Assembly: GCA_028687975.1 (NCBI GenBank)
Contig: JAQTZD010000005.1
Span: 2,905-66,904, forward strand
Direction: 5' to 3'
DNA length: 64,000 nucleotides
Source: Sediminibacterium sp.
GTDB lineage: Bacteria; Bacteroidota; Bacteroidia; Chitinophagales; Chitinophagaceae
A program made the translations under genes and the position numbers. Shown here in pieces: positions 54,854 through 63,151 of this stretch; the stretch's first letter is position 1; each line of letters starts with the position of its first letter. The notes under the pieces were generated by a model, which was given only the letters and a program-made list of their open reading frames with translations, did no database searches and had not been told where the DNA came from.

Positions 54854-55486
54854 ATGGGAATGACGATTGGAGCAACCTGGAGCGGGTATTGGAGCAACAA
54901 GTCCTTCAGGGTGAAATTTATTACAGGAATTGTACTGCTGGCAATGCTGACCCCCTTGTTTCCCGTATTCTTTGAATACATCGAAAAACGGGAAGGGTAT
55001 CAGTTAAACGACTACCTGCTGAGCAGGCTGGAGCCAATGAATGTATCTGTACTCACTTTCCTGATCATCTGGGGGATGATTGCCTTCACACTCTACCGTT
55101 GCATGAAAGATCCGGATATGTTACTCTTGCTCATCTGGTCGTATGTGTTGCTTTGTTTTGGCCGCATTCTGAGTATTTATCTGGTTCCGCTGAACCCGCC
55201 AAAAGGCCTGATTGAACTGAAAGACCCGCTCAGTGGCATCTTTTACGGCAGCCAGATGGTCACCAAAGACCTGTTTTTTTCGGGTCATACTGCTACCTTG
55301 TTCACCATGTTTCTTTGCTTAAAAAACAAAACCGACAAGATCATTTTGCTGCTGTCTTCTTTTGTAATCGGTATCCTGGTACTGGTTCAACATGTTCATT
55401 ATACCCTCGATGTAGCTGCAGCCTTTCTTTTCTCCTATCTGTTTTACAGGATGGCCAAGCGATTATTGCAGTTCGATTTTAGCTAA
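54854..55486 (+). CDS. Sphingomyelin-synthase-like PAP2 (PAP2_C) membrane phosphotransferase
   Basis: Multi-TM; KDLFFSGHT and HVHYTLDV match the SMS D3 (D--FSGHT) and D4 (HYT-DV) motifs. Confidence 0.78.
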   Translation: MGMTIGATWSGYWSNKSFRVKFITGIVLLAMLTPLFPVFFEYIEKREGYQLNDYLLSRLEPMNVSVLTFLIIWGMIAFTLYRCMKDPDMLLLLIWSYVLLCFGRILSIYLVPLNPPKGLIELKDPLSGIFYGSQMVTKDLFFSGHTATLFTMFLCLKNKTDKIILLLSSFVIGILVLVQHVHYTLDVAAAFLFSYLFYRMAKRLLQFDFS

Positions 55487-56426
55487 CGGCAGCAACAATC
55501 CGGTCCATAAAATTTTGTATGAGTCTGCTTTTGTTCAAGAGCCGGTTGAACAAAAATATACCTGTGATGGCACATACGATACCCGCAATTACATCCAGTA
55601 CATAATGGTGACTGGTATATACTGCTGCAAACCAGATACCAACCATAACGGCGGTGAAAAACAGGTTCATCCAGCCGGAGCGGCTTTTGATTCCATAGTA
55701 CAATACAATCAGCGGATAGGATGAATGGAGCGATGGCATGGCTGCAAATACATTGGAGCTTTTTTCGTACAGTCCGCGGAAAATATTTACTCCAAAAAAG
55801 GTGTCAAATCTTACCAGCCCTGCTGTATTTCCTTTTGTACCGGGGATAAAATCAAATCCATATTGTTGTATGTACCAGGGTGGCGCTGCGGGATAAATAT
55901 AGTAGAGGCAGAACCCCAGGAGGTTGACCAGCAGGAACGTAAGCGAAAAACGAAAAAACATTCTGCGGTCTTTAAAAAAAAGGAAGGCGCCAAACATCAG
56001 CGGCACAGGTATCCAGCTCAGGTAAAAAAAACCGCTGAGTACATCCAGGAATGTATTGTGGTGCCTGAGCCAGTATTCATTGGGGGTAATCAGGGTACCA
56101 TTTTCAGTGAGTCCGAAAAAGGCTTTCTCCTTGAGGTAAAGACTGCGGATGTGTACATCATTGTACAAATAGTTCGGAAAGGCCTTCATGTAATCGAAAA
56201 TGATCCAGAATACAATGAAAACAGAAAAGCCCAGGATAAACTTTCGGGTAACTGCCGACAAAAAGTAACAACCCGAAAACAAAGCCACCAGCAACAATTG
56301 TTCCTGCTTGTAACCAATCAGAAAATAAGACAATGCCAGGTAGGCGATACTGAGGAATGCCACCAGCAGAATATCTTTCCGGCTAAGGGTTTCATTTTGG
56401 TTCAACGAATCAGGCAGCATATTCAT
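55479..56426 (-). CDS. Inositol phosphorylceramide synthase-like (AUR1/PAP2_3; BT_1522-like)
   Basis: YPAAPPWY, AAMPSLHS, HHYVLDVIAG catalytic motifs; located in the MIPS operon. Confidence 0.88.
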   Translation of the reverse strand: MNMLPDSLNQNETLSRKDILLVAFLSIAYLALSYFLIGYKQEQLLLVALFSGCYFLSAVTRKFILGFSVFIVFWIIFDYMKAFPNYLYNDVHIRSLYLKEKAFFGLTENGTLITPNEYWLRHHNTFLDVLSGFFYLSWIPVPLMFGAFLFFKDRRMFFRFSLTFLLVNLLGFCLYYIYPAAPPWYIQQYGFDFIPGTKGNTAGLVRFDTFFGVNIFRGLYEKSSNVFAAMPSLHSSYPLIVLYYGIKSRSGWMNLFFTAVMVGIWFAAVYTSHHYVLDVIAGIVCAITGIFLFNRLLNKSRLIQNFMDRIVAAVS

Positions 56427-56440
56427 CTGTGATTTTCGGG

Positions 56441-57082
56441 TCAGGGCTTGAATCTTTCGATAATGGGTTTGCCGGTTGCTACATCCGTACCACGCAATTC
56501 AATGTAAACTACATTGGGTTTAAACAAGGTACCTCCCGGATCTATTCTGATGAATACTCTGTTCAACGCAGCATTCCGGCGGTTAATCAGTGTGTACATC
56601 CGATAGCTGTTATCCGTTGGTGATTTGCGTAGGTAAAGGTCTTTTTTCTTGTAGGCTACCAGGTGAATGGTGTAGCTGTTGTCCTTGTTTTTTTCCGACA
56701 TGGTTCCATAGGCAAAAGCCTTTTGAATAAAGTTCAGCTCTTTGTGCATACCACCTTCGGGATAACGAATCCAGAATACTTTTACGGGAGTAGACTCATC
56801 CAGTTTTCCCGCAGCATTTACATTCAGCGTATAAATCACTGTATTGGTATTGGTGGTACGCTGTAAATAAAATAACTGGTTTCTGATATTGGCAGGAACC
56901 GGAAAAGTATCCTGCGGCTCCAGGATTTCCTTATCAGTTGATAAGCCGGAAAACTTACCCCTTCCTGCGTAAGTTGAATTCACCAAAAGAAGGGTTGTAA
57001 CAAAGGCTGTCATGATCCTCACAATACGGGCTGTTTTACCCGCTCTGCACACAAATAATTGATTCATTTTAAATAAAAACAT
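56441..57082 (-). CDS. DUF4833 domain exported protein
   Basis: LFYLQRTTNTNTVIY, VFWIRY, ELNFIQKAFAYG, V-YIEL-G-D; alternative starts at 57067 and further downstream. Confidence 0.8.
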   Translation of the reverse strand: MFLFKMNQLFVCRAGKTARIVRIMTAFVTTLLLVNSTYAGRGKFSGLSTDKEILEPQDTFPVPANIRNQLFYLQRTTNTNTVIYTLNVNAAGKLDESTPVKVFWIRYPEGGMHKELNFIQKAFAYGTMSEKNKDNSYTIHLVAYKKKDLYLRKSPTDNSYRMYTLINRRNAALNRVFIRIDPGGTLFKPNVVYIELRGTDVATGKPIIERFKP

Positions 57083-57813
57083 TAAAGGCTTTTCTGCCGG
57101 TCTTTCAAATCCAGTGCTGCTTTGGCATCCAGTAATCTTCGGAATGCCGTATAATTGGTCAGTAAAGCAAGCAGCATGATCGGAATAGTGAATATGGATA
57201 TGGTTTCAAAAATTTGTATTTGGGTTCCGGGCAGGAATACTTTATAATCTCCGCCAATAAAGTAAGCGGCAATACCACAGGCAATGGCTGAAATACCTAT
57301 CGTGATTACCCGCTCCGGTCTTTGCATCAGTCCTTCTTTACATTCCACACCCAGGCCCTCTGCCCTTGCCCGGGTATAACTTACCATCATGGAACCAATC
57401 AGGGCAATGAAGGCAAACAGGGAGCTGTAGAAATAATGATGGGCAATCAGGTAATAGCAAATGCCCAAAAACAGGATCAGTTCACTGTAGCGATCCAGCA
57501 CGGAATCGAACAATGCCCCGAAGGAAGAACTCATTTTTCCCAACCGGGCCACCTGACCATCCAGCATATCAAAAACACCGGCAAAAAGTACCATGGCACC
57601 GGCCCATCCAATATAGCTGAGTTCTCCCCGATGCCCTTTTTCGGCCCCTTCTATGAATATAGCAGTTACTGCTATATTGAGCAGTAGCCCGATCACTGTA
57701 ACTGCATTGGGTGTTAGCCCGATCTTAATCAGGAATTTCACAGCAGGATTGATCACAGCGTAAATGGCCTGCTGCGCTCTGTCTCTGAATTTTATTTGCC
57801 TTTGCTCTGTCAT
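57082..57813 (-). CDS. CDP-alcohol phosphatidyltransferase (phosphatidylinositol-phosphate synthase, BT_1523-like)
   Basis: DMLDGQVARLGKMSSSFGALFDSVLDRYSE matches DG-x2-AR-x8-G-x3-D-x3-D; SYTRARAEGLG, RPER. Confidence 0.92.
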   Translation of the reverse strand: MTEQRQIKFRDRAQQAIYAVINPAVKFLIKIGLTPNAVTVIGLLLNIAVTAIFIEGAEKGHRGELSYIGWAGAMVLFAGVFDMLDGQVARLGKMSSSFGALFDSVLDRYSELILFLGICYYLIAHHYFYSSLFAFIALIGSMMVSYTRARAEGLGVECKEGLMQRPERVITIGISAIACGIAAYFIGGDYKVFLPGTQIQIFETISIFTIPIMLLALLTNYTAFRRLLDAKAALDLKDRQKSL

Positions 57814-57824
57814 ACATTCCTTCG

Positions 57825-60404
57825 TTAAAAATCAAACCTGAATCTTGTTCTGATACCATAAGGAGAAATTTCCGGATGATCGAGGTAACTGAATCTTTTA
57901 ACAAAATCGACCCGGATAAGTTTCAGGATATTCTCAATACCAACGCTTCCTTCCATATATGGCTTACCAGATTCCAGTGCAAAGGTAGATGTGGCGCCGT
58001 TAATTTTAGGATACTGGAACAATGAAGGGTTGTTGACCGGATTATTTTCCGGCCTTACGCCACCGTAGAGGATTTTGAAGGAAGCCACTTCACGCAGTTT
58101 CAGTTTCTTGAACAGCGGAATCCGGTTGAACCCGATTCCCATAAAGTGGTGAACCCAGGTAAATGAGGCATAGCGGTCACTGACAAATTCCAGGAAGTTC
58201 ATCAGGTTATAAGAATTCATCTGGTATGCGAAAGTCTGGTTGGCACGGTGAATGGTCATCAAAGGAAAAGGCACTTGGCCAAAGGTATAACCCGCTTCCA
58301 TGGCCGCATCTGCATAACCCAGGCGGGACAGGTAAAAGCGCTTATCCACTTTTAAATCCAATTGATGGTAATTGTACTGTCCTCCCAGCAAGCCTTTAAT
58401 CCCCGCTGAATAATTCAGGGTCATGATGGGATATTTATTGAAAATCGGTATCCGGTATACCTTTCCCTGGTAGTATTGTTCTTTAGGCGCCCACCGGATC
58501 TGTGCATTGATTTCTGTAGTGGTCAACTGAGGAACATTCTCCGGAAATCCATTATCGGTTTTGGTATACGACAAGCCCCCTGCAGGCTGCTGCCGCCAGT
58601 TCTTCAGCCCCAGTGTATAGGAAAACTTGCTCTTGAACTCCTTTACAAATTCCACTTTATAAATATCGTTGTAGAGCCAGCGATCGTTGTTTCCGCGTTT
58701 AAAAGACAAAAGGAAATTGTCTTCCTGAACAAACTCCAGGTCCTGTCCGGGAATTTTGGTGTCGGACTGAGCACTAATCCGGATAAAGTTCATCGGGAAA
58801 GTATAGATCGACTTATTGTTGAGTGAATATGTGGAACTGATAAAGTATTTCCATTTCTCGTCTTTGAATCCGTATGCGCCATAGGTTTCAAAATATAGCC
58901 GCTTACTCAGGGCCGGGGTGGTTCTTCCTCCCACACGCAAACGGAATCCTTCCACCGGGTTGAAGCTGTAAAATGTATTTACCGGTCCCACTTCAAATTT
59001 GCCCAGGTTACCATATCCGGCAAACAACAAGGTAGCTACCGCCATGGTTCTTCTGAAAGAAGGCATTTTTTCCAGGCTGTCGATATTGGTATATACTCTG
59101 GACTCTGTTAAACTCAACTGATCGTGTCGTTTTGCAGTCCAGAAAGTATCCGGCAGTTTATCAACAAAGTCTTTTCTAACAACAGGTGAGCCTGCGTATG
59201 TACTATCCGGTCTCGGACTGTTGATGGTGAAATTTTTATAGGAAACCGTTCGTTCTCCAAAAAAGCCTCCGCTGTTTTTATTCTTGCTCAATCCCATGTC
59301 GGCCATGAGTGTGCTCTTTTGCAGGTGGTAGCGCTTATCTTCTCCTCGTTCAAAATCCAGGTCTATATGCATTTCCTTCACCCAGTTGATATTGGCATTC
59401 TTACTCAGGAACATGTTGATTTTCTGTACCCCGTAATTGCCATCGAGGGTGATGTACATATTGCCCCTGAATAACAGATCATTGGTATTGCGGGGGGTAA
59501 AATACATTTTCACCAGCTTGGTGCCATATTCGTCGGTAATGGTATCTCGGATATAGAACATGTAGAAAGCAGGTGCAGAATTGGCAATCGGACTCAGGAA
59601 CTGAAAAGTGAAAACATGAATATCGTTCTGATAGATGTCGATGTTTTCGTACAACCTGTTCAAAAGGGTACTTAAACCGTCGTTGTCTACATAACTTCCG
59701 AAGTTCACTTTCTTCTCGCCAAGAATAATAGACTTGCTTGCCTCCGGCGACTTGCGCAGGAACTGCTGAGACAATCTTTCCTCGAGATATATGGGTAAAA
59801 GGCTCTTCCCTTCCATTTTGGTGGTATCCCTGTTATCGAAAATGAAACTGTACTTTTTCATCAACTTTGAATTAGCCAGTTTCTCCGTTGAATTACTCAG
59901 TGCAGCCTGAATTTTTTCATACTGCTCATATTCCACATAATCGTAACTGGTAGTCCGGTTTTCGTCCCGATGCTCAATTACTTTACGAATCAGTTCCACT
60001 GCCGGGTTATTCCGGTTGCTGTATTTTGCCCGTTTGTTGGTACTTACTGTTACATTGCTCATCAAAGCTGGATCAGGTCCCATCATGATGGTCAGGTCTT
60101 CCACACTTCCCTTCTTAATGGTAAACTGCAGCTGCCTGTATCCCACAGAAGAAACAATGAGTTTATTGCTGTTGCCGGAGTAAATAATCATAAAATTACC
60201 CAGGCTGTCGGTGGAACGTCCTCTCCCCCCTTTGAAATATACACTGGCTTGTGCAATCGGCCTGCCTGTAAGAGAGTCGATGACCCTTCCCTTCACCACC
60301 GTTCCCTGTCCAAAACTGTCTGTAACAGCTGTAAACAGCAACACCAGCCCCAGCAAGCACTGTTTCCACCCTATACTATTTATGAATTTATTTTTTAAAA
60401 ACAT
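57825..60404 (-). CDS. Outer-membrane protein: CarboxypepD_reg-like N-domain plus DUF5686 beta-barrel
   Basis: Signal peptide, VKGRVIDS-TG-PI--ASV...VSSVGY N-domain, NPAVELIRKVI, C-terminal aromatic beta-signal RFRFDF; start moved to 60404. Confidence 0.85.
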   Translation of the reverse strand: MFLKNKFINSIGWKQCLLGLVLLFTAVTDSFGQGTVVKGRVIDSLTGRPIAQASVYFKGGRGRSTDSLGNFMIIYSGNSNKLIVSSVGYRQLQFTIKKGSVEDLTIMMGPDPALMSNVTVSTNKRAKYSNRNNPAVELIRKVIEHRDENRTTSYDYVEYEQYEKIQAALSNSTEKLANSKLMKKYSFIFDNRDTTKMEGKSLLPIYLEERLSQQFLRKSPEASKSIILGEKKVNFGSYVDNDGLSTLLNRLYENIDIYQNDIHVFTFQFLSPIANSAPAFYMFYIRDTITDEYGTKLVKMYFTPRNTNDLLFRGNMYITLDGNYGVQKINMFLSKNANINWVKEMHIDLDFERGEDKRYHLQKSTLMADMGLSKNKNSGGFFGERTVSYKNFTINSPRPDSTYAGSPVVRKDFVDKLPDTFWTAKRHDQLSLTESRVYTNIDSLEKMPSFRRTMAVATLLFAGYGNLGKFEVGPVNTFYSFNPVEGFRLRVGGRTTPALSKRLYFETYGAYGFKDEKWKYFISSTYSLNNKSIYTFPMNFIRISAQSDTKIPGQDLEFVQEDNFLLSFKRGNNDRWLYNDIYKVEFVKEFKSKFSYTLGLKNWRQQPAGGLSYTKTDNGFPENVPQLTTTEINAQIRWAPKEQYYQGKVYRIPIFNKYPIMTLNYSAGIKGLLGGQYNYHQLDLKVDKRFYLSRLGYADAAMEAGYTFGQVPFPLMTIHRANQTFAYQMNSYNLMNFLEFVSDRYASFTWVHHFMGIGFNRIPLFKKLKLREVASFKILYGGVRPENNPVNNPSLFQYPKINGATSTFALESGKPYMEGSVGIENILKLIRVDFVKRFSYLDHPEISPYGIRTRFRFDF

Positions 60405-60771
60405 ACTTTCCTTGTAAAACATAATTATAAAATATACCAACCAATAAGGATACCAATATCTTGGAAAACACATAGTTCACGTTAAAAACATGCACCATCA
60501 ATGCCAGCCCGCCCACATTTAACAGCAAGTTCCCCACCCATACCAACAGGTATTTAAGTGCCTGCTGTGGTACCGGATGTTCTTTTGACTGGAACACCCA
60601 GTTTCTTCCCAGTGTAAAGTTCAGTACCCCGCCCGTGGTAGTTCCGATTGCACCGGCAATCACAGGAGGCAGGTGCACCAGTTCCACCATCAATACTGTT
60701 ACCAGAAAATCGGTAGCAGATGATATCAAAGAAGATGCCTGAGCCTTTATAAATACCCACCATTTTACCAT
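60388..60771 (-). CDS. GtrA family membrane protein (putative lipid flippase; BT_1524-like)
   Basis: 127 aa, four TM, D--V...NF-L-R-WVF...K-------YNY-LQ--YVF. Confidence 0.88.
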   Translation of the reverse strand: MVKWWVFIKAQASSLISSATDFLVTVLMVELVHLPPVIAGAIGTTTGGVLNFTLGRNWVFQSKEHPVPQQALKYLLVWVGNLLLNVGGLALMVHVFNVNYVFSKILVSLLVGIFYNYVLQGKYVFKK

Positions 60772-61220
60772 AACTGCAGATATAGCATTATTTGTAAAAC
60801 AATATTGGCATAAATACCAGCCAGTACGTCATCCCCCATCACCCCCCAGCCTTTTGGCAGTTGTTCCATTTTTCTGACCATCAGCGGCTTCGCGATGTCG
60901 AAAAAACGAAAAAGTGCCAGGGCAACCAGCAGGTTCGTCAGATTTAGCGGAACAAACAAAAGGCTGATAAACATGCCCGCCACTTCATCAATCACCACTT
61001 TACTGCTGTCTTTGCCCCACAATGGTTCCACTTCGGCTGCGCCCCAAACCCCATAGGCCGTAACCAATAAGGTTACTCCGGCAGTAACTGCCAACTGCGC
61101 CTGATCAAATGCATAATACCAAATGATACAGGCTACCGCTGCAGCAACAGTGCCACCGCCTTTGGATATATAACCTATACCCAAAAAACTGGTTAATGTC
61201 TGGTGCAGCCTGATCATCAT
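60765..61220 (-). CDS. pgpA: Phosphatidylglycerophosphatase A family (PIP phosphatase, BT_1525-like)
   Basis: GTVAA, VVIDEVAG, FRFFDIAKP, GVMGDDVLAGIYA. Confidence 0.92.
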   Translation of the reverse strand: MMIRLHQTLTSFLGIGYISKGGGTVAAAVACIIWYYAFDQAQLAVTAGVTLLVTAYGVWGAAEVEPLWGKDSSKVVIDEVAGMFISLLFVPLNLTNLLVALALFRFFDIAKPLMVRKMEQLPKGWGVMGDDVLAGIYANIVLQIMLYLQLW

Positions 61221-62542
61221 AGGGCTTCTACAAGTTCCTGATAGTAATCAAGCCCCAGATGCGTAATCAGGTCTTCTCCCATCATATGACGCAATGTGTT
61301 CTGCAGTTTAATTAACTGTTTAAAAATATCGTGTTCAGGATTCAGACCAGGAGCCGTTTGCGGCGATTTAAAATAGAACGACAACCATTCCTGAATGCCG
61401 CTCATTTCTGCACGCTTTGCCAGATCCATGAACAAAGCCAGGTCCAGTACAATCGGAGCAGCTAAAATTGAATCCCGGCAGAGAAAATTAATTTTAATCT
61501 GCATCGAATAGCCCAACCATCCAAATATGTCGATATTATCCCAACTCTCTTTATTGTCTCCATGTGGAGGATAATAGTTGATTCTTACTTTATGGTATAA
61601 GTCTCCGTAAAGGGCCGGATTTTTTTCCGGCTGAAGAATATCTTCCAGTACGCTGAGCTTGGATACTTCCTTGGTTTTAAAGTTATCCGGATCATCCAGT
61701 ACCAGACCATCGCGATTCCCAAGAATATTGGTAGAGAACCAGCCGCGGACACCCAGGGCCCTTGCTGCCAAACCCGGTGCTACAATGGTTTTCATGAGGG
61801 TCTGACCAGTTTTAAAATCCTTTCCGGCTACAGGAGTACCGGTTTCTTTTGCAAGTTCAATCAATGCCGGAATATCAACCGTAAGATTGGGGGCGCCATT
61901 GGCAAACGGAACACCCAGTTTCAATGCCGCATAAGCATAAATCATGCTAGGAGCAATGGCCGGATCGCTGTTGTGCAGTCCTGCTTCAAATGCTTCCATA
62001 CTTTGATGCACTGCAGAAGCTTCTATGTACTTTTCCGTAGATCCGCACCATACAATCACCACCCGGCTACAGCCGTTTTCTTTTTGAAAAGTTTCAATAT
62101 CGTTCATTACCTGAAGGGCAAGGTCGTATTTGGATTTACCTTCTTTAATATGGGTACCATCCAGGTTTTTAACATAGGAACGATCAAATACCGCTTTCAT
62201 AGGCTGGATGGATTCCAGTTCGGGCTTCACCGCATGCAGCAGCATTGGCTCGATCACTTTGGCTTTGGAAGCAGCTTCGAACACGTTGTCGCTGTACACA
62301 TCCCAACCACCAAAAACAATGTCTTTCAGTTCCGCCAGCGGAACAAAATCCTTGATCAGAGGATACCTGTTTTCTGTTCTTTTACCCAGGCGGATATTAC
62401 CCATTTGTGTTAATGAGCCAACGGGCTGGGACAAGCCTTTGTTCACAGCAATTACTCCTGCAATCATGGTAGTACCAACAGCTCCCAGTCCGGGTATCAG
62501 TATACCCAGTTTACCTTCTGCCGGTTGTATATAATGGTTCAT
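61217..62542 (-). CDS. ino1: myo-inositol-1-phosphate synthase (BT_1526-like)
   Basis: GLGAVGTT NAD loop, GKDFKTGQTLMK, WFSTNILGNRDG, CRDSILAAPIVLDL. Confidence 0.96.
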   Translation of the reverse strand: MNHYIQPAEGKLGILIPGLGAVGTTMIAGVIAVNKGLSQPVGSLTQMGNIRLGKRTENRYPLIKDFVPLAELKDIVFGGWDVYSDNVFEAASKAKVIEPMLLHAVKPELESIQPMKAVFDRSYVKNLDGTHIKEGKSKYDLALQVMNDIETFQKENGCSRVVIVWCGSTEKYIEASAVHQSMEAFEAGLHNSDPAIAPSMIYAYAALKLGVPFANGAPNLTVDIPALIELAKETGTPVAGKDFKTGQTLMKTIVAPGLAARALGVRGWFSTNILGNRDGLVLDDPDNFKTKEVSKLSVLEDILQPEKNPALYGDLYHKVRINYYPPHGDNKESWDNIDIFGWLGYSMQIKINFLCRDSILAAPIVLDLALFMDLAKRAEMSGIQEWLSFYFKSPQTAPGLNPEHDIFKQLIKLQNTLRHMMGEDLITHLGLDYYQELVEAL

Positions 62543-62548
62543 ACGCTT

Positions 62549-63151
62549 TTATTTAGTGGTTGTTTGATGATGATTTTTAAGCCCTTCGGTCATGATGCCG
62601 GAAATAACATTGATCCTGTTTTCCAGGCCAGATAATTTATTGCTGAAATAGTCCCGTTCAATTCCCCGGATACTGCTCACAATTAAAGAAGGTAAAATGT
62701 CCATTTCATCGGATAGTTGCGCCTTGAACTCACCGGATTGAATTCCGGATTCCAGAATAGAAGCAATCAGTTGGATATCCTGCTGTGTGTACTCAGAAAA
62801 AAGTTCTTTAGAACAGGTAGGCTGCCACATCATTTCACCGCAAACCAGCTTGTACAGGTTTATCATTTTAGTCAAGACCGTGATTTTGGTAACCGCAAAA
62901 GCCCTGAGTTTCTCCTCGGCCGTTCGGGCTTTTTCCACAGCAGACTTGGTTACATTAAATACTTCCTGCAGCTCAGATTGCAACACATCCTCAAAAATCT
63001 GTTCTTTGGACTGGTAATAATAATAAAGGGTGCTTTTGCCCTTTCCCATCGCTTTGGCGATGTCTTCCATGGTAGTTTTCTTCAGACCAAAGGTTTGAAA
63101 GAGCTTTTGTGCCGCCCGTATCACATCTTCTCTGAATATAACTTCTTTCAT
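62549..63151 (-). CDS. TetR/AcrR family transcriptional regulator
   Basis: AAQKLFQTFGLKKTTMEDIAKAMGKGKSTLYYYYQSKEQIF helix-turn-helix. Confidence 0.95.
   Translation of the reverse strand: MKEVIFREDVIRAAQKLFQTFGLKKTTMEDIAKAMGKGKSTLYYYYQSKEQIFEDVLQSELQEVFNVTKSAVEKARTAEEKLRAFAVTKITVLTKMINLYKLVCGEMMWQPTCSKELFSEYTQQDIQLIASILESGIQSGEFKAQLSDEMDILPSLIVSSIRGIERDYFSNKLSGLENRINVISGIMTEGLKNHHQTTTK

Follow-up and report, generated by a model that had tools for sequence, protein, structure and literature searches.

A DUF5686 protein encoded within an inositol-lipid operon of Sediminibacterium, with a predicted Omp85-type barrel and LolA-like domain, as a candidate outer-membrane lipid insertase

Why should the gene for a putative outer-membrane barrel lie inside an operon for lipid biosynthesis? 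The question is raised by a 64,000-nucleotide stretch of DNA from Sediminibacterium sp. (contig JAQTZD010000005.1, positions 2,905 to 66,904; hereafter the window), in which a gene for a protein of the DUF5686 family is embedded among genes for the synthesis of inositol lipids. An original prediction had proposed that this protein is either an outer-membrane translocon or insertase for inositol lipids or an uptake pore for inositol-containing precursors. The reading we favour, tentatively and with slightly less than even confidence, is that the DUF5686 protein serves as the outer-membrane receiver and insertase for inositol lipids; it draws on the predicted architecture of the protein and on the conserved linkage of its gene to inositol-lipid genes. 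As modelled, the protein is composed of four modules after the signal peptide: an NTE domain, a TonB-box-like motif, a LolA/LolB-fold domain and an Omp85-type barrel. Within the window the gene and its parts are placed as follows.

57825 to 60404, minus strand: DUF5686 gene, 859 amino acids plus stop (open reading frame and translation, Pfam PF13715 and PF18939, homologue lengths)
60309 to 60404, minus strand: signal peptide, residues 1-32 (read from the sequence; predicted cleavage between SFG and Q; helix at 12-30 in the model)
60066 to 60308, minus strand: NTE / CarboxypepD_reg Ig-like domain, residues 33-113 (PF13715, profile and structure matches; periplasmic by homology with SusC)
60042 to 60062, minus strand: TonB-box-like motif, residues 115-121 (reads LMSNVTV; family consensus L-x-E-V-V/T-V/I)
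59172 to 60023, minus strand: LolA/LolB-fold domain, residues 128-411 (separate model, VIA and Foldseek; opens with Y-x-N-K-x-N-P-A)
59019 to 59150, minus strand: helical hairpin leading from the LolA-like domain to the barrel, residues 419-462 (DSSP of both models)
57828 to 59003, minus strand: Omp85-type beta-barrel, residues 468-859 (Foldseek and VIA; ends in the beta-signal ...RFRFDF)

The DUF5686 protein had 4,217 relatives among the 1.8 billion cluster representatives searched, and an AlphaFold2 model of the full protein built from an alignment of 132 of these had a mean predicted local distance difference test score (pLDDT) of 92.4 and a predicted template-modelling score of 0.82; residues 128-411 were also modelled separately by AlphaFold2 (pLDDT 95.2). 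Structures were compared with Foldseek and VIA (VIA-align), secondary structure was assigned with DSSP, and domains and neighbouring genes were scanned against Pfam at E<=0.01, the threshold for the plug, TonB_dep_Rec, POTRA and PF01103 results below. A sequence search of the PDB found relatives only for the N-terminal ~100 amino acids, namely the NTE domains of SusC and RagA and carboxypeptidase D. For the barrel, the best Foldseek matches were Sam50, Toc75, BamA and TamA at E values of 5e-9 to 1e-6, and VIA gave Z scores of 19.8 for Sam50, 18.8 for TamA, 18.1 for BamA and 15.9 for FhaC, with FhaC and CdiB together spanning 15.5-16.2. Against barrel-only chains of TamA, which are 306-314 residues long, 281-283 residues were aligned. 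Other barrel families scored lower, with a maximum of Z 13.9 for porins and of 10.5 for TonB-dependent transporters, and the best matches listed for the barrel did not include LptD. On the predicted model, the barrel thus has the fold of the Omp85 superfamily, and it shares with BamA, TamA, Sam50, Toc75 and FhaC/CdiB a superposition at Z 15.5-19.8, a C-terminal Phe beta-signal and a predicted outer-membrane setting. It differs from them in that the NTE, the TonB-box-like motif, the LolA-like domain and the helical hairpin take the place of POTRA domains, of which Pfam found none, residues 33-462 being covered by the NTE, the LolA-like domain and the hairpin; it also has neither a Pfam Omp85 match nor profile-level sequence similarity. 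We regard it, from the model, as an Omp85-superfamily barrel at the level of fold that lacks both POTRA domains and the sequence signature, an architectural variant and not a member of the BamA/TamA family. The barrels of BamA, TamA, Sam50 and FhaC work through a lateral seam.

The middle domain gave a more moderate but uniform result. With residues 128-411, VIA placed LolA3 of Porphyromonas gingivalis (9tp6) at Z 10.0 with 189 of 239 residues aligned, followed by DUF1329 (Z 9.8), the 'lipoprotein-sorting' domain 3bk5 (Z 9.7), the LolA-superfamily protein NE2245 (Z 8.5) and LolB of P. gingivalis (9tpm; Z 8.1); lower matches comprised lipovitellin, ApoB, further LolA/LolB proteins, LprG, LppX, RseB and MucB. 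Foldseek independently put the same LolA/LolB-type families on top, at E values of 1e-5 to 1e-3, so that in these model comparisons the best matches from both programs were all LolA, LolB or other lipid-binding relatives. No LolA or LolB sequence family matched the protein in Pfam. The LolA/LolB fold is an open beta-barrel with helices that shields acyl chains in carriers of lipoproteins and lipids. In the model the domain appears to share with LolA and LolB an open antiparallel sheet in which helices are embedded (Z 8-10 over 176-189 residues), and, as with LolB, its place would be the outer membrane; unlike the soluble or lipid-anchored LolA/LolB-type proteins, it is covalently joined to a membrane barrel, and it is larger (about 285 amino acids), has no sequence-family match and binds a ligand only putatively. 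Its likeness to mycobacterial LprG includes a link to inositol lipids, and its likeness to LolA2 and LolB2 of Flavobacterium johnsoniae includes a place within a lipid biosynthesis operon: lolA2 and lolB2 lie within the flexirubin operon of that species (PMC11885536), which shows that Bacteroidota do place LolA/LolB-like genes in operons for outer-membrane lipids. The stretch Y-x-N-K-x-N-P-A at the start of the domain (59997-60023, residues 128-136) is the most conserved of the whole protein, with Y128, N130, N133, P134 and A135 invariant in 81 of 81 orthologues. In the Atlas, models of further DUF5686 clusters have the middle domain in common (TM scores of 0.88-0.94), so that the architecture, as modelled, is that of the whole DUF5686 family. 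BtLolB and LptZ, two recently described Bacteroides factors, are proteins different from DUF5686.

The N-terminal part of the protein resembles that of SusC. The family profile matched the N-termini of SusC and RagA at E values of 3e-20 to 3e-13, and the NTE of the SusC protein BT3090 (9hfj) superposed on residues 33-113 at Z 13.1 with a root-mean-square deviation of 2.0 and 32% identity. Directly after this domain, residues 115-121 aligned with the LDEVVVV stretch of SusC; they were disordered in the model (pLDDT below 50). A conserved motif, L-x-E/N-V-V/T-V/I, stands at the TonB-box position, and its contact with TonB is putative. Over the 132 relatives the counts were L in 100/132, E in 84/132, V in 101/132 and V or I in 128/132; in the orthologue clade V118 was kept in 80/81 and V or I at 120 in 81/81, with E in 46/81 and N in 22/81. 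In BT1763, VDEVVV directly after the NTE is an experimentally validated TonB box, and the NTE and TonB box of SusC are periplasmic (PMC7782687). The N-terminus of the DUF5686 protein is laid out like that of SusC and RagA, with a signal peptide and then the NTE, after which a putative D/E-V-V-V type motif stands at the TonB-box position of BT1763; unlike them the protein lacks a plug domain, a 22-strand barrel and a SusD partner. A TonB-dependent transporter was considered as its identity and rejected, since no Plug or TonB_dep_Rec match was found by Pfam and the best matches to structures of such transporters gave Z 9.9-10.5 vs 18-20 for Omp85. Only about 7 residues separate the hairpin from the first barrel strand in the model; from this short linker and from the C-terminal beta-signal, which ends in the periplasm, the N-terminal modules should be periplasmic, and for the carrier-like domain the same side is argued by the short linker together with the periplasmic NTE and TonB box of SusC. 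In functional terms the arrangement is analogous to LptD/LptE, where an outer-membrane barrel, to which a periplasmic lipid-binding beta domain is fused, releases an amphipathic lipid sideways into the outer leaflet; LptD differs in its 26-strand barrel, its beta-jellyroll and its LptE plug. Outer-membrane placement agrees with the listing of a DUF5686 protein among the outer-membrane proteins in the outer-membrane-vesicle proteome of Tannerella forsythia (PMC10682907).

The basic description of the gene given by the original prediction held throughout. The longest minus-strand open reading frame (57825..60473) would encode 882 amino acids and the ATG at 60404 gives 859, close to the predicted length of about 860; homologues are 848-852 amino acids long and align from about residue 16-25, and the start at 60404 is therefore likely. 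With this start the gene overlaps gtrA, as had been noted, by 17 nucleotides, the gtrA stop codon TAA (60390-60388) lying inside the first 17 nucleotides of the DUF5686 gene. By inspection the N-terminus, MFLKNKFINSIGWKQCLLGLVLLFTAVTDSFG followed after the cleavage point by QG, has the basic n-region and hydrophobic core of a signal peptide with Gln at +1, and this Gln33 is conserved in at least 90% of orthologues; Gln at +1 of cleavage fits the 'Q-rule' of Bacteroidota. The CarboxypepD_reg-like N-domain was recovered by Pfam (CarbopepD_reg_2, E 3.8e-12), the predicted C-terminal Phe beta-signal was borne out by the end ...RTRFRFDF, whose terminal Phe is conserved in at least 90% of the 132 relatives, and the predicted absence of a TonB-receptor plug and of a SusD partner also stood, in that no plug, no TonB_dep_Rec domain and, among the neighbouring genes, no SusD was matched; the former is qualified by the TonB-box-like motif after the N-terminal domain. 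The DUF5686 domain itself (PF18939) was matched at E 2.2e-51 over profile positions 2-655 of 669, with 175.5 bits against a gathering cut-off of 39.2 bits. A second DUF5686 gene of the same genome (contig C116) scored 742-743 bits, and the operon copy, at 175 bits, therefore represents a divergent subfamily.

The genes around it form a unit of eight minus-strand genes, running from 63151 down to 55479 in the order TetR, MIPS, PgpA-like, GtrA, DUF5686, PIPS, DUF4833 and PAP2_3, with gaps or overlaps of 17 nucleotides or less. The seven other genes are the following.

62549 to 63151, minus strand: TetR-family regulator, first operon gene (PF00440)
61217 to 62542, minus strand: myo-inositol-1-phosphate synthase (MIPS; PF07994, E 2.9e-104, and PF01658)
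60765 to 61220, minus strand: PgpA-like phosphatase (PF04608), counterpart of the phosphatidylinositol-phosphate (PIP) phosphatase BT_1525
60388 to 60771, minus strand: GtrA-family small membrane protein (PF04138), counterpart of BT_1524
57082 to 57813, minus strand: phosphatidylinositol-phosphate synthase (PIPS), a CDP-alcohol phosphatidyltransferase (PF01066; NCBIfam PIPSynBT1523)
56441 to 57082, minus strand: DUF4833 protein with an N-terminal hydrophobic anchor (PF16117)
55479 to 56426, minus strand: PAP2_3 enzyme, phosphoinositol-dihydroceramide-synthase-like (BT_1522-like; PF14378)

That the barrel gene is embedded in a lipid-biosynthesis operon, as first proposed, was thereby confirmed. 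PIPS scored 380.7 bits against the NCBIfam equivalog PIPSynBT1523, above the cut-off of 350 bits; the best NCBIfam match of the PAP2_3 enzyme, PhinosDhcerSyn, reached 340 bits, below its cut-off of 480 bits. By sequence, the cluster is an inositol-lipid operon of the Bacteroides type, with MIPS, a BT1523-type PIPS, a PgpA-like phosphatase and a PAP2 enzyme together. The corresponding set of Bacteroides thetaiotaomicron, BT_1522-BT_1526, has been characterised (Heaver 2022, PMC9246714; Sartorio 2022, PMC8791184), with BT_1525 as the PIP phosphatase (PMC9246714), and it shares with the window MIPS, the PgpA-like phosphatase, GtrA, the BT1523-type PIPS and the PAP2 enzyme resembling inositol phosphoceramide (IPC) synthase; the window differs in having the barrel gene inside the operon, between gtrA and PIPS, and in the addition of DUF4833. 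In B. thetaiotaomicron, BT1522-1526 suffice on their own to restore the synthesis of IPC (PMC8791184). Their neighbour BT_1527 was neither deleted nor further discussed in these two papers (PMC9246714, PMC8791184); the supplements of PMC9246714 gave no confirmation that it is a DUF5686 protein, and it can be named only as a possible one; the B. thetaiotaomicron control genome does have a PF18939 match. In the window PIPS and DUF4833 are separate genes with one shared base (57082), and the DUF4833 protein is predicted from its sequence to be periplasmic and tethered to the inner membrane.

If the DUF5686 protein served these enzymes, its gene should accompany theirs in other genomes. In a sample of one genome from each of 120 genera of Chitinophagaceae, taking 51% identity or more as the mark of an orthologue, the orthologue was present in 18/120 and lay 0.2-2.5 kb from MIPS in 16 of these; MIPS likewise occurred in 18/120 genomes with the orthologue beside it in 16, so that both were present in 16 genera, the orthologue only in 2 and MIPS only in 2. 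Paralogues of about 30% and about 25% identity were found elsewhere in most Chitinophagaceae genomes. When named genomes were scanned with a lower limit of 50% identity, 80 loci were found in the orders Chitinophagales, Sphingobacteriales and Cytophagales; among the genera were Sediminibacterium, Chitinophaga, Ferruginibacter, Segetibacter, Pedobacter, Mucilaginibacter, Spirosoma, Dyadobacter, Hymenobacter and Pontibacter. The order MIPS-PgpA-GtrA-DUF5686-PIPS-DUF4833-PAP2 recurred in all three orders; over the 80 loci PIPS directly followed the gene in 59, and PAP2_3 was a neighbour in 54, PgpA in 53, MIPS in 46 and GtrA in 46, several of the other loci being short contigs. DUF4833 was present in 56 of the 59 loci with PIPS, and in 29 of the 59 the two formed one protein of about 430-460 amino acids, in which an additional hydrophobic segment joins DUF4833 to the C-terminus of PIPS (L027:12497-13801, L045:12503-13789, L070:12319-13608 and 26 further loci, in our numbering of loci). 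Such a fusion is, at the level of sequence, a Rosetta-stone link between the unknown domain and the synthase, and its form argues that DUF4833 lies in the periplasm, tethered beside the synthase. In a FastTree tree, the inositol context recurred throughout a clade of 82 sequences that had good support.

The linkage extended to clusters of other composition. In three species of Dyadobacter (L083:6547-18723, L092, L098) the orthologue lay in a different cluster of the same layout, in the order Spt-like aminotransferase, unknown 373-amino-acid gene, epimerase, DUF5686, NTP transferase, unknown 289-amino-acid gene, CDP-alcohol transferase, LPG_synthase_TM and HAD hydrolase, with DUF4833 about 1 kb beyond the hydrolase gene. 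The Spt-like, 373-amino-acid and epimerase genes look from their sequences like a ceramide-type triad, and the cluster like a complete 'alternative' route to inositol sphingolipids; it corresponds to what Heaver et al. (PMC9246714) put forward as the 'alternative' inositol-lipid pathway. As the orthologue also sits in this non-homologous cluster, the linkage appears to follow the product and not one set of enzymes. The window genome has a 57% identical counterpart of the Dyadobacter Spt-like aminotransferase, located away from the inositol operon (G000:C41:20022-21188, L108), which makes a sphingolipid end product plausible. A third arrangement (L030, L036, L051) consisted of DUF502, Aminotran_5, optionally TetR and MIPS, DUF5686, DUF4833, DUF1015 and an AMP-binding enzyme, and locus L060 kept only its DUF5686-DUF4833 pair. 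Conversely, one Chitinophagaceae genome (G103) had a MIPS-PgpA-GtrA-PIPS-PAP2_3 cluster without DUF5686 or DUF4833, and a search of that genome with the window protein found no DUF5686 relative anywhere in it. From this cluster and from the restoration of IPC synthesis by BT1522-1526 alone, an accessory and not a synthetic role fits the DUF5686 protein; an accessory role in outer-membrane transport or insertion fits the insertase-type barrel with its acyl-chain-carrier fold, the occurrence with two unrelated routes and the occurrence of the synthesis genes without DUF5686.

We propose the following scheme, in which localisation, topology, cargo and direction of transport are inferred, as are the parts played by DUF4833, by GtrA and, if it is used, by TonB. 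PIPS and the PgpA-like phosphatase would make phosphatidylinositol at the inner membrane, and the PAP2 enzyme would turn it into IPC. The lipid would then reach the periplasmic leaflet, GtrA being a candidate for this step, and DUF4833, in many loci one protein with PIPS and predicted to be anchored in the inner membrane, would present or release it as what is probably the inner-membrane-side partner. At the outer membrane the LolA-like domain of DUF5686 would take up the acyl chains, and the Omp85-type barrel would hand the lipid through its seam into the outer membrane, possibly into the outer leaflet; the TonB-box-like motif may couple this insertion to the energy of the inner membrane. A bolder form of the proposal, which we put forward as doubtful, is that DUF5686 constitutes a new class of outer-membrane lipid translocase in which POTRA has been swapped for a LolA-type carrier while the SusC-type NTE and TonB box have been kept, so that inner-membrane energy would drive the insertion or flipping of phosphatidylinositol and IPC in this clade with DUF4833 as the hand-off partner. 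A complex prediction with DUF5686 residues 33-466 and DUF4833 residues 52-213 gave a score of 0.00, which counts neither for nor against binding; DUF4833 had no PDB relative by sequence and no Atlas model.

Several results weigh against the insertase proposal. The candidate function is drawn from predicted structures and synteny only, and strand count, lateral seam, cavity hydrophobicity and membrane side are putative. The LolA match, at Z of about 10, stands only moderately above the usual background of the aligner (7-8). The Omp85 sequence signature PF01103 was not matched in the protein, and hhalign of the 132-sequence profile with BamA and a small Omp85 protein of the same genome gave a probability of 0.6%, a weak test with only single sequences for templates. 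In the window protein the TonB-box-like motif is degenerate, N replacing E, and the operon encodes no inner-membrane extractor such as an ABC transporter. A few small nested sub-clades in the tree consisted of close paralogues in unrelated contexts, without inositol genes, and in the other MIPS-carrying lineages of Bacteroidota that were sampled, genomes with the alternative cluster included, MIPS had no DUF5686 gene within about 10 kb. The linkage that the original prediction called for was therefore found in three orders, with two non-homologous routes and with DUF4833 included, but not in those further lineages. Finally, the LolA fold also carries lipoproteins, so a free-lipid cargo is not required.

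This last point leads to the alternative of a LolB-like or BamA-like factor for outer-membrane biogenesis that handles a lipoprotein or an inositol-lipid-anchored glycoconjugate (compare the handling of phosphatidylinositol mannosides and lipoarabinomannan by mycobacterial LprG) and not bulk phosphatidylinositol or IPC. The acyl chains of lipoproteins are the best-known cargo of the LolA fold, LprG and LppX were among the structural matches, GtrA-family proteins are associated with lipid-linked glycans (PMC9246714, PMC8791184), and most Bacteroidota genomes have housekeeping DUF5686 paralogues outside inositol clusters; yet Pfam found neither a lipoprotein gene nor a glycosyltransferase in the operon, the clade tracks inositol-lipid genes in two versions of the pathway, and DUF4833 lacks a lipobox and in many loci forms a fusion with PIPS; we consider such a cargo unlikely. 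An improbable reading, to our minds, is that the gene encodes a general structural or envelope-homeostasis protein of the outer membrane which owes its place in the operon to co-regulation or inheritance of a gene block: it would account for the missing linkage in the other lineages, for close paralogues beside a MacB-type ABC system or in unrelated contexts and for the apparent movement of the cluster between lineages as a block, but not readily for the retention of the gene in two non-homologous pathway clusters with a changing position within the cluster, for its nearly constant company with MIPS over the 120 genera, or for the absence of both DUF5686 and DUF4833 from the G103 cluster.

The remaining alternatives concern the direction of transport and the nature of what is moved. 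The NTE and TonB-box-like module, as found in SusC importers, would suit a TonB-energised importer or retrograde transporter, in which hydrophobic or inositol-containing molecules enter via the barrel and are received by the periplasmic LolA-like domain, and the direction is not fixed by the present data; the operon, however, makes inositol de novo via MIPS, every partner in it is biosynthetic, and the protein lacks a plug and a 22-strand barrel. To our knowledge no member of the Omp85 superfamily is a nutrient importer or pore. We accordingly give import little credence, and because of the de novo synthesis and the type of barrel the uptake pore named in the original prediction is the less likely of its two proposals, with the TonB-box-like motif leaving import or retrograde transport possible. 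Least probable of all is a translocator for proteins, either two-partner like FhaC or type Vd like PlpD, that would export its own N-terminal domains or DUF4833 to the surface. FhaC and CdiB did match the barrel, and DUF4833 was the most constant neighbour after PIPS, but the fusion of DUF4833 to an integral inner-membrane PIPS in 29/59 loci leaves no secreted passenger there, the linker between hairpin and barrel spans only about 7 residues, and SusC has its NTE and TonB box in the periplasm (PMC7782687). For the insertase proposal, then, the Omp85-type barrel, the LolA-fold domain and the conserved linkage count in favour, all of them indirectly, and localisation, lipid binding and direction are the parts that we infer; as the main inference of the original prediction it is reasonable, and the candidate is specific and testable.

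According to work on Caulobacter sphingolipids, no flippases or transporters for the delivery of bacterial sphingolipids to the outer membrane have been identified (PMC11087976), and in gut Bacteroidota inositol lipids and sphingolipids affect the capsule, host colonisation and the composition of vesicles (PMC9246714, PMC8791184). For the movement of sphingolipids and inositol lipids from the inner to the outer membrane and to vesicles, DUF5686 and DUF4833 offer a concrete two-protein candidate that comes with domain boundaries and a mutable motif. A full-text literature search for 'DUF5686' found no functional account of the domain, and the combination of an Omp85 barrel, a LolA-like domain and a TonB-box-like motif was not found described in the literature searched; the models assign an architecture, at the level of fold, to a domain of unknown function with thousands of members in Bacteroidota.

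A number of further observations were made at related loci. In close relatives (e.g. L023-L043) TetR lies directly upstream of MIPS, as in the window, and in the closest ones a second, separate DUF4833 gene is found about 2-3 kb upstream of TetR (L024:4627-5190, L025:3674-4201, L040:4666-5193), the equivalent place being beyond the end of the window. A feature search of the ESM Atlas returned one DUF4833 cluster that is 50% Eukaryota, most often Oomycota. Close DUF5686 paralogues (52-53% identity) without inositol genes, in Pedobacter panaciterrae (L096:1232-12535) and at L088 and L101, are preceded, as seen at L096, by HlyD, OEP, an ABC ATPase, two FtsX/MacB_PCD permeases, a sigma-54 response regulator and a histidine kinase, the transporter being of the MacB/LolCDE type. 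The widespread 'housekeeping' paralogue of ~30% identity in Chitinophagaceae (L128, L131-L137, L139, L140) has a conserved divergent neighbour of ~220 amino acids with no Pfam family, often followed by CreD, prokaryotic diacylglycerol kinase and DUF1361, an envelope and lipid-recycling neighbourhood; the contexts of two distant representatives (P0122, P0200) were uninformative. The operon itself also occurs on contigs deposited as Caulobacter sp. and Williamsia sp. (L028, L048), probably through errors of binning or labelling of metagenome-assembled genomes. In one family with MIPS and no recognisable inositol-lipid cluster, a conserved membrane protein of ~835 amino acids is encoded 2-4 kb from MIPS (L003:14437-16944, L004:4508-7003, L005:12756-15260). 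At L103:1511-10535, a DUF5686 relative of 45% identity lies directly downstream of a 2,138-amino-acid protein with SpvB, TcdB_toxin_midN, RHS and YD-shell matches and upstream of a sigma-70/FecR/STN-type receptor set.

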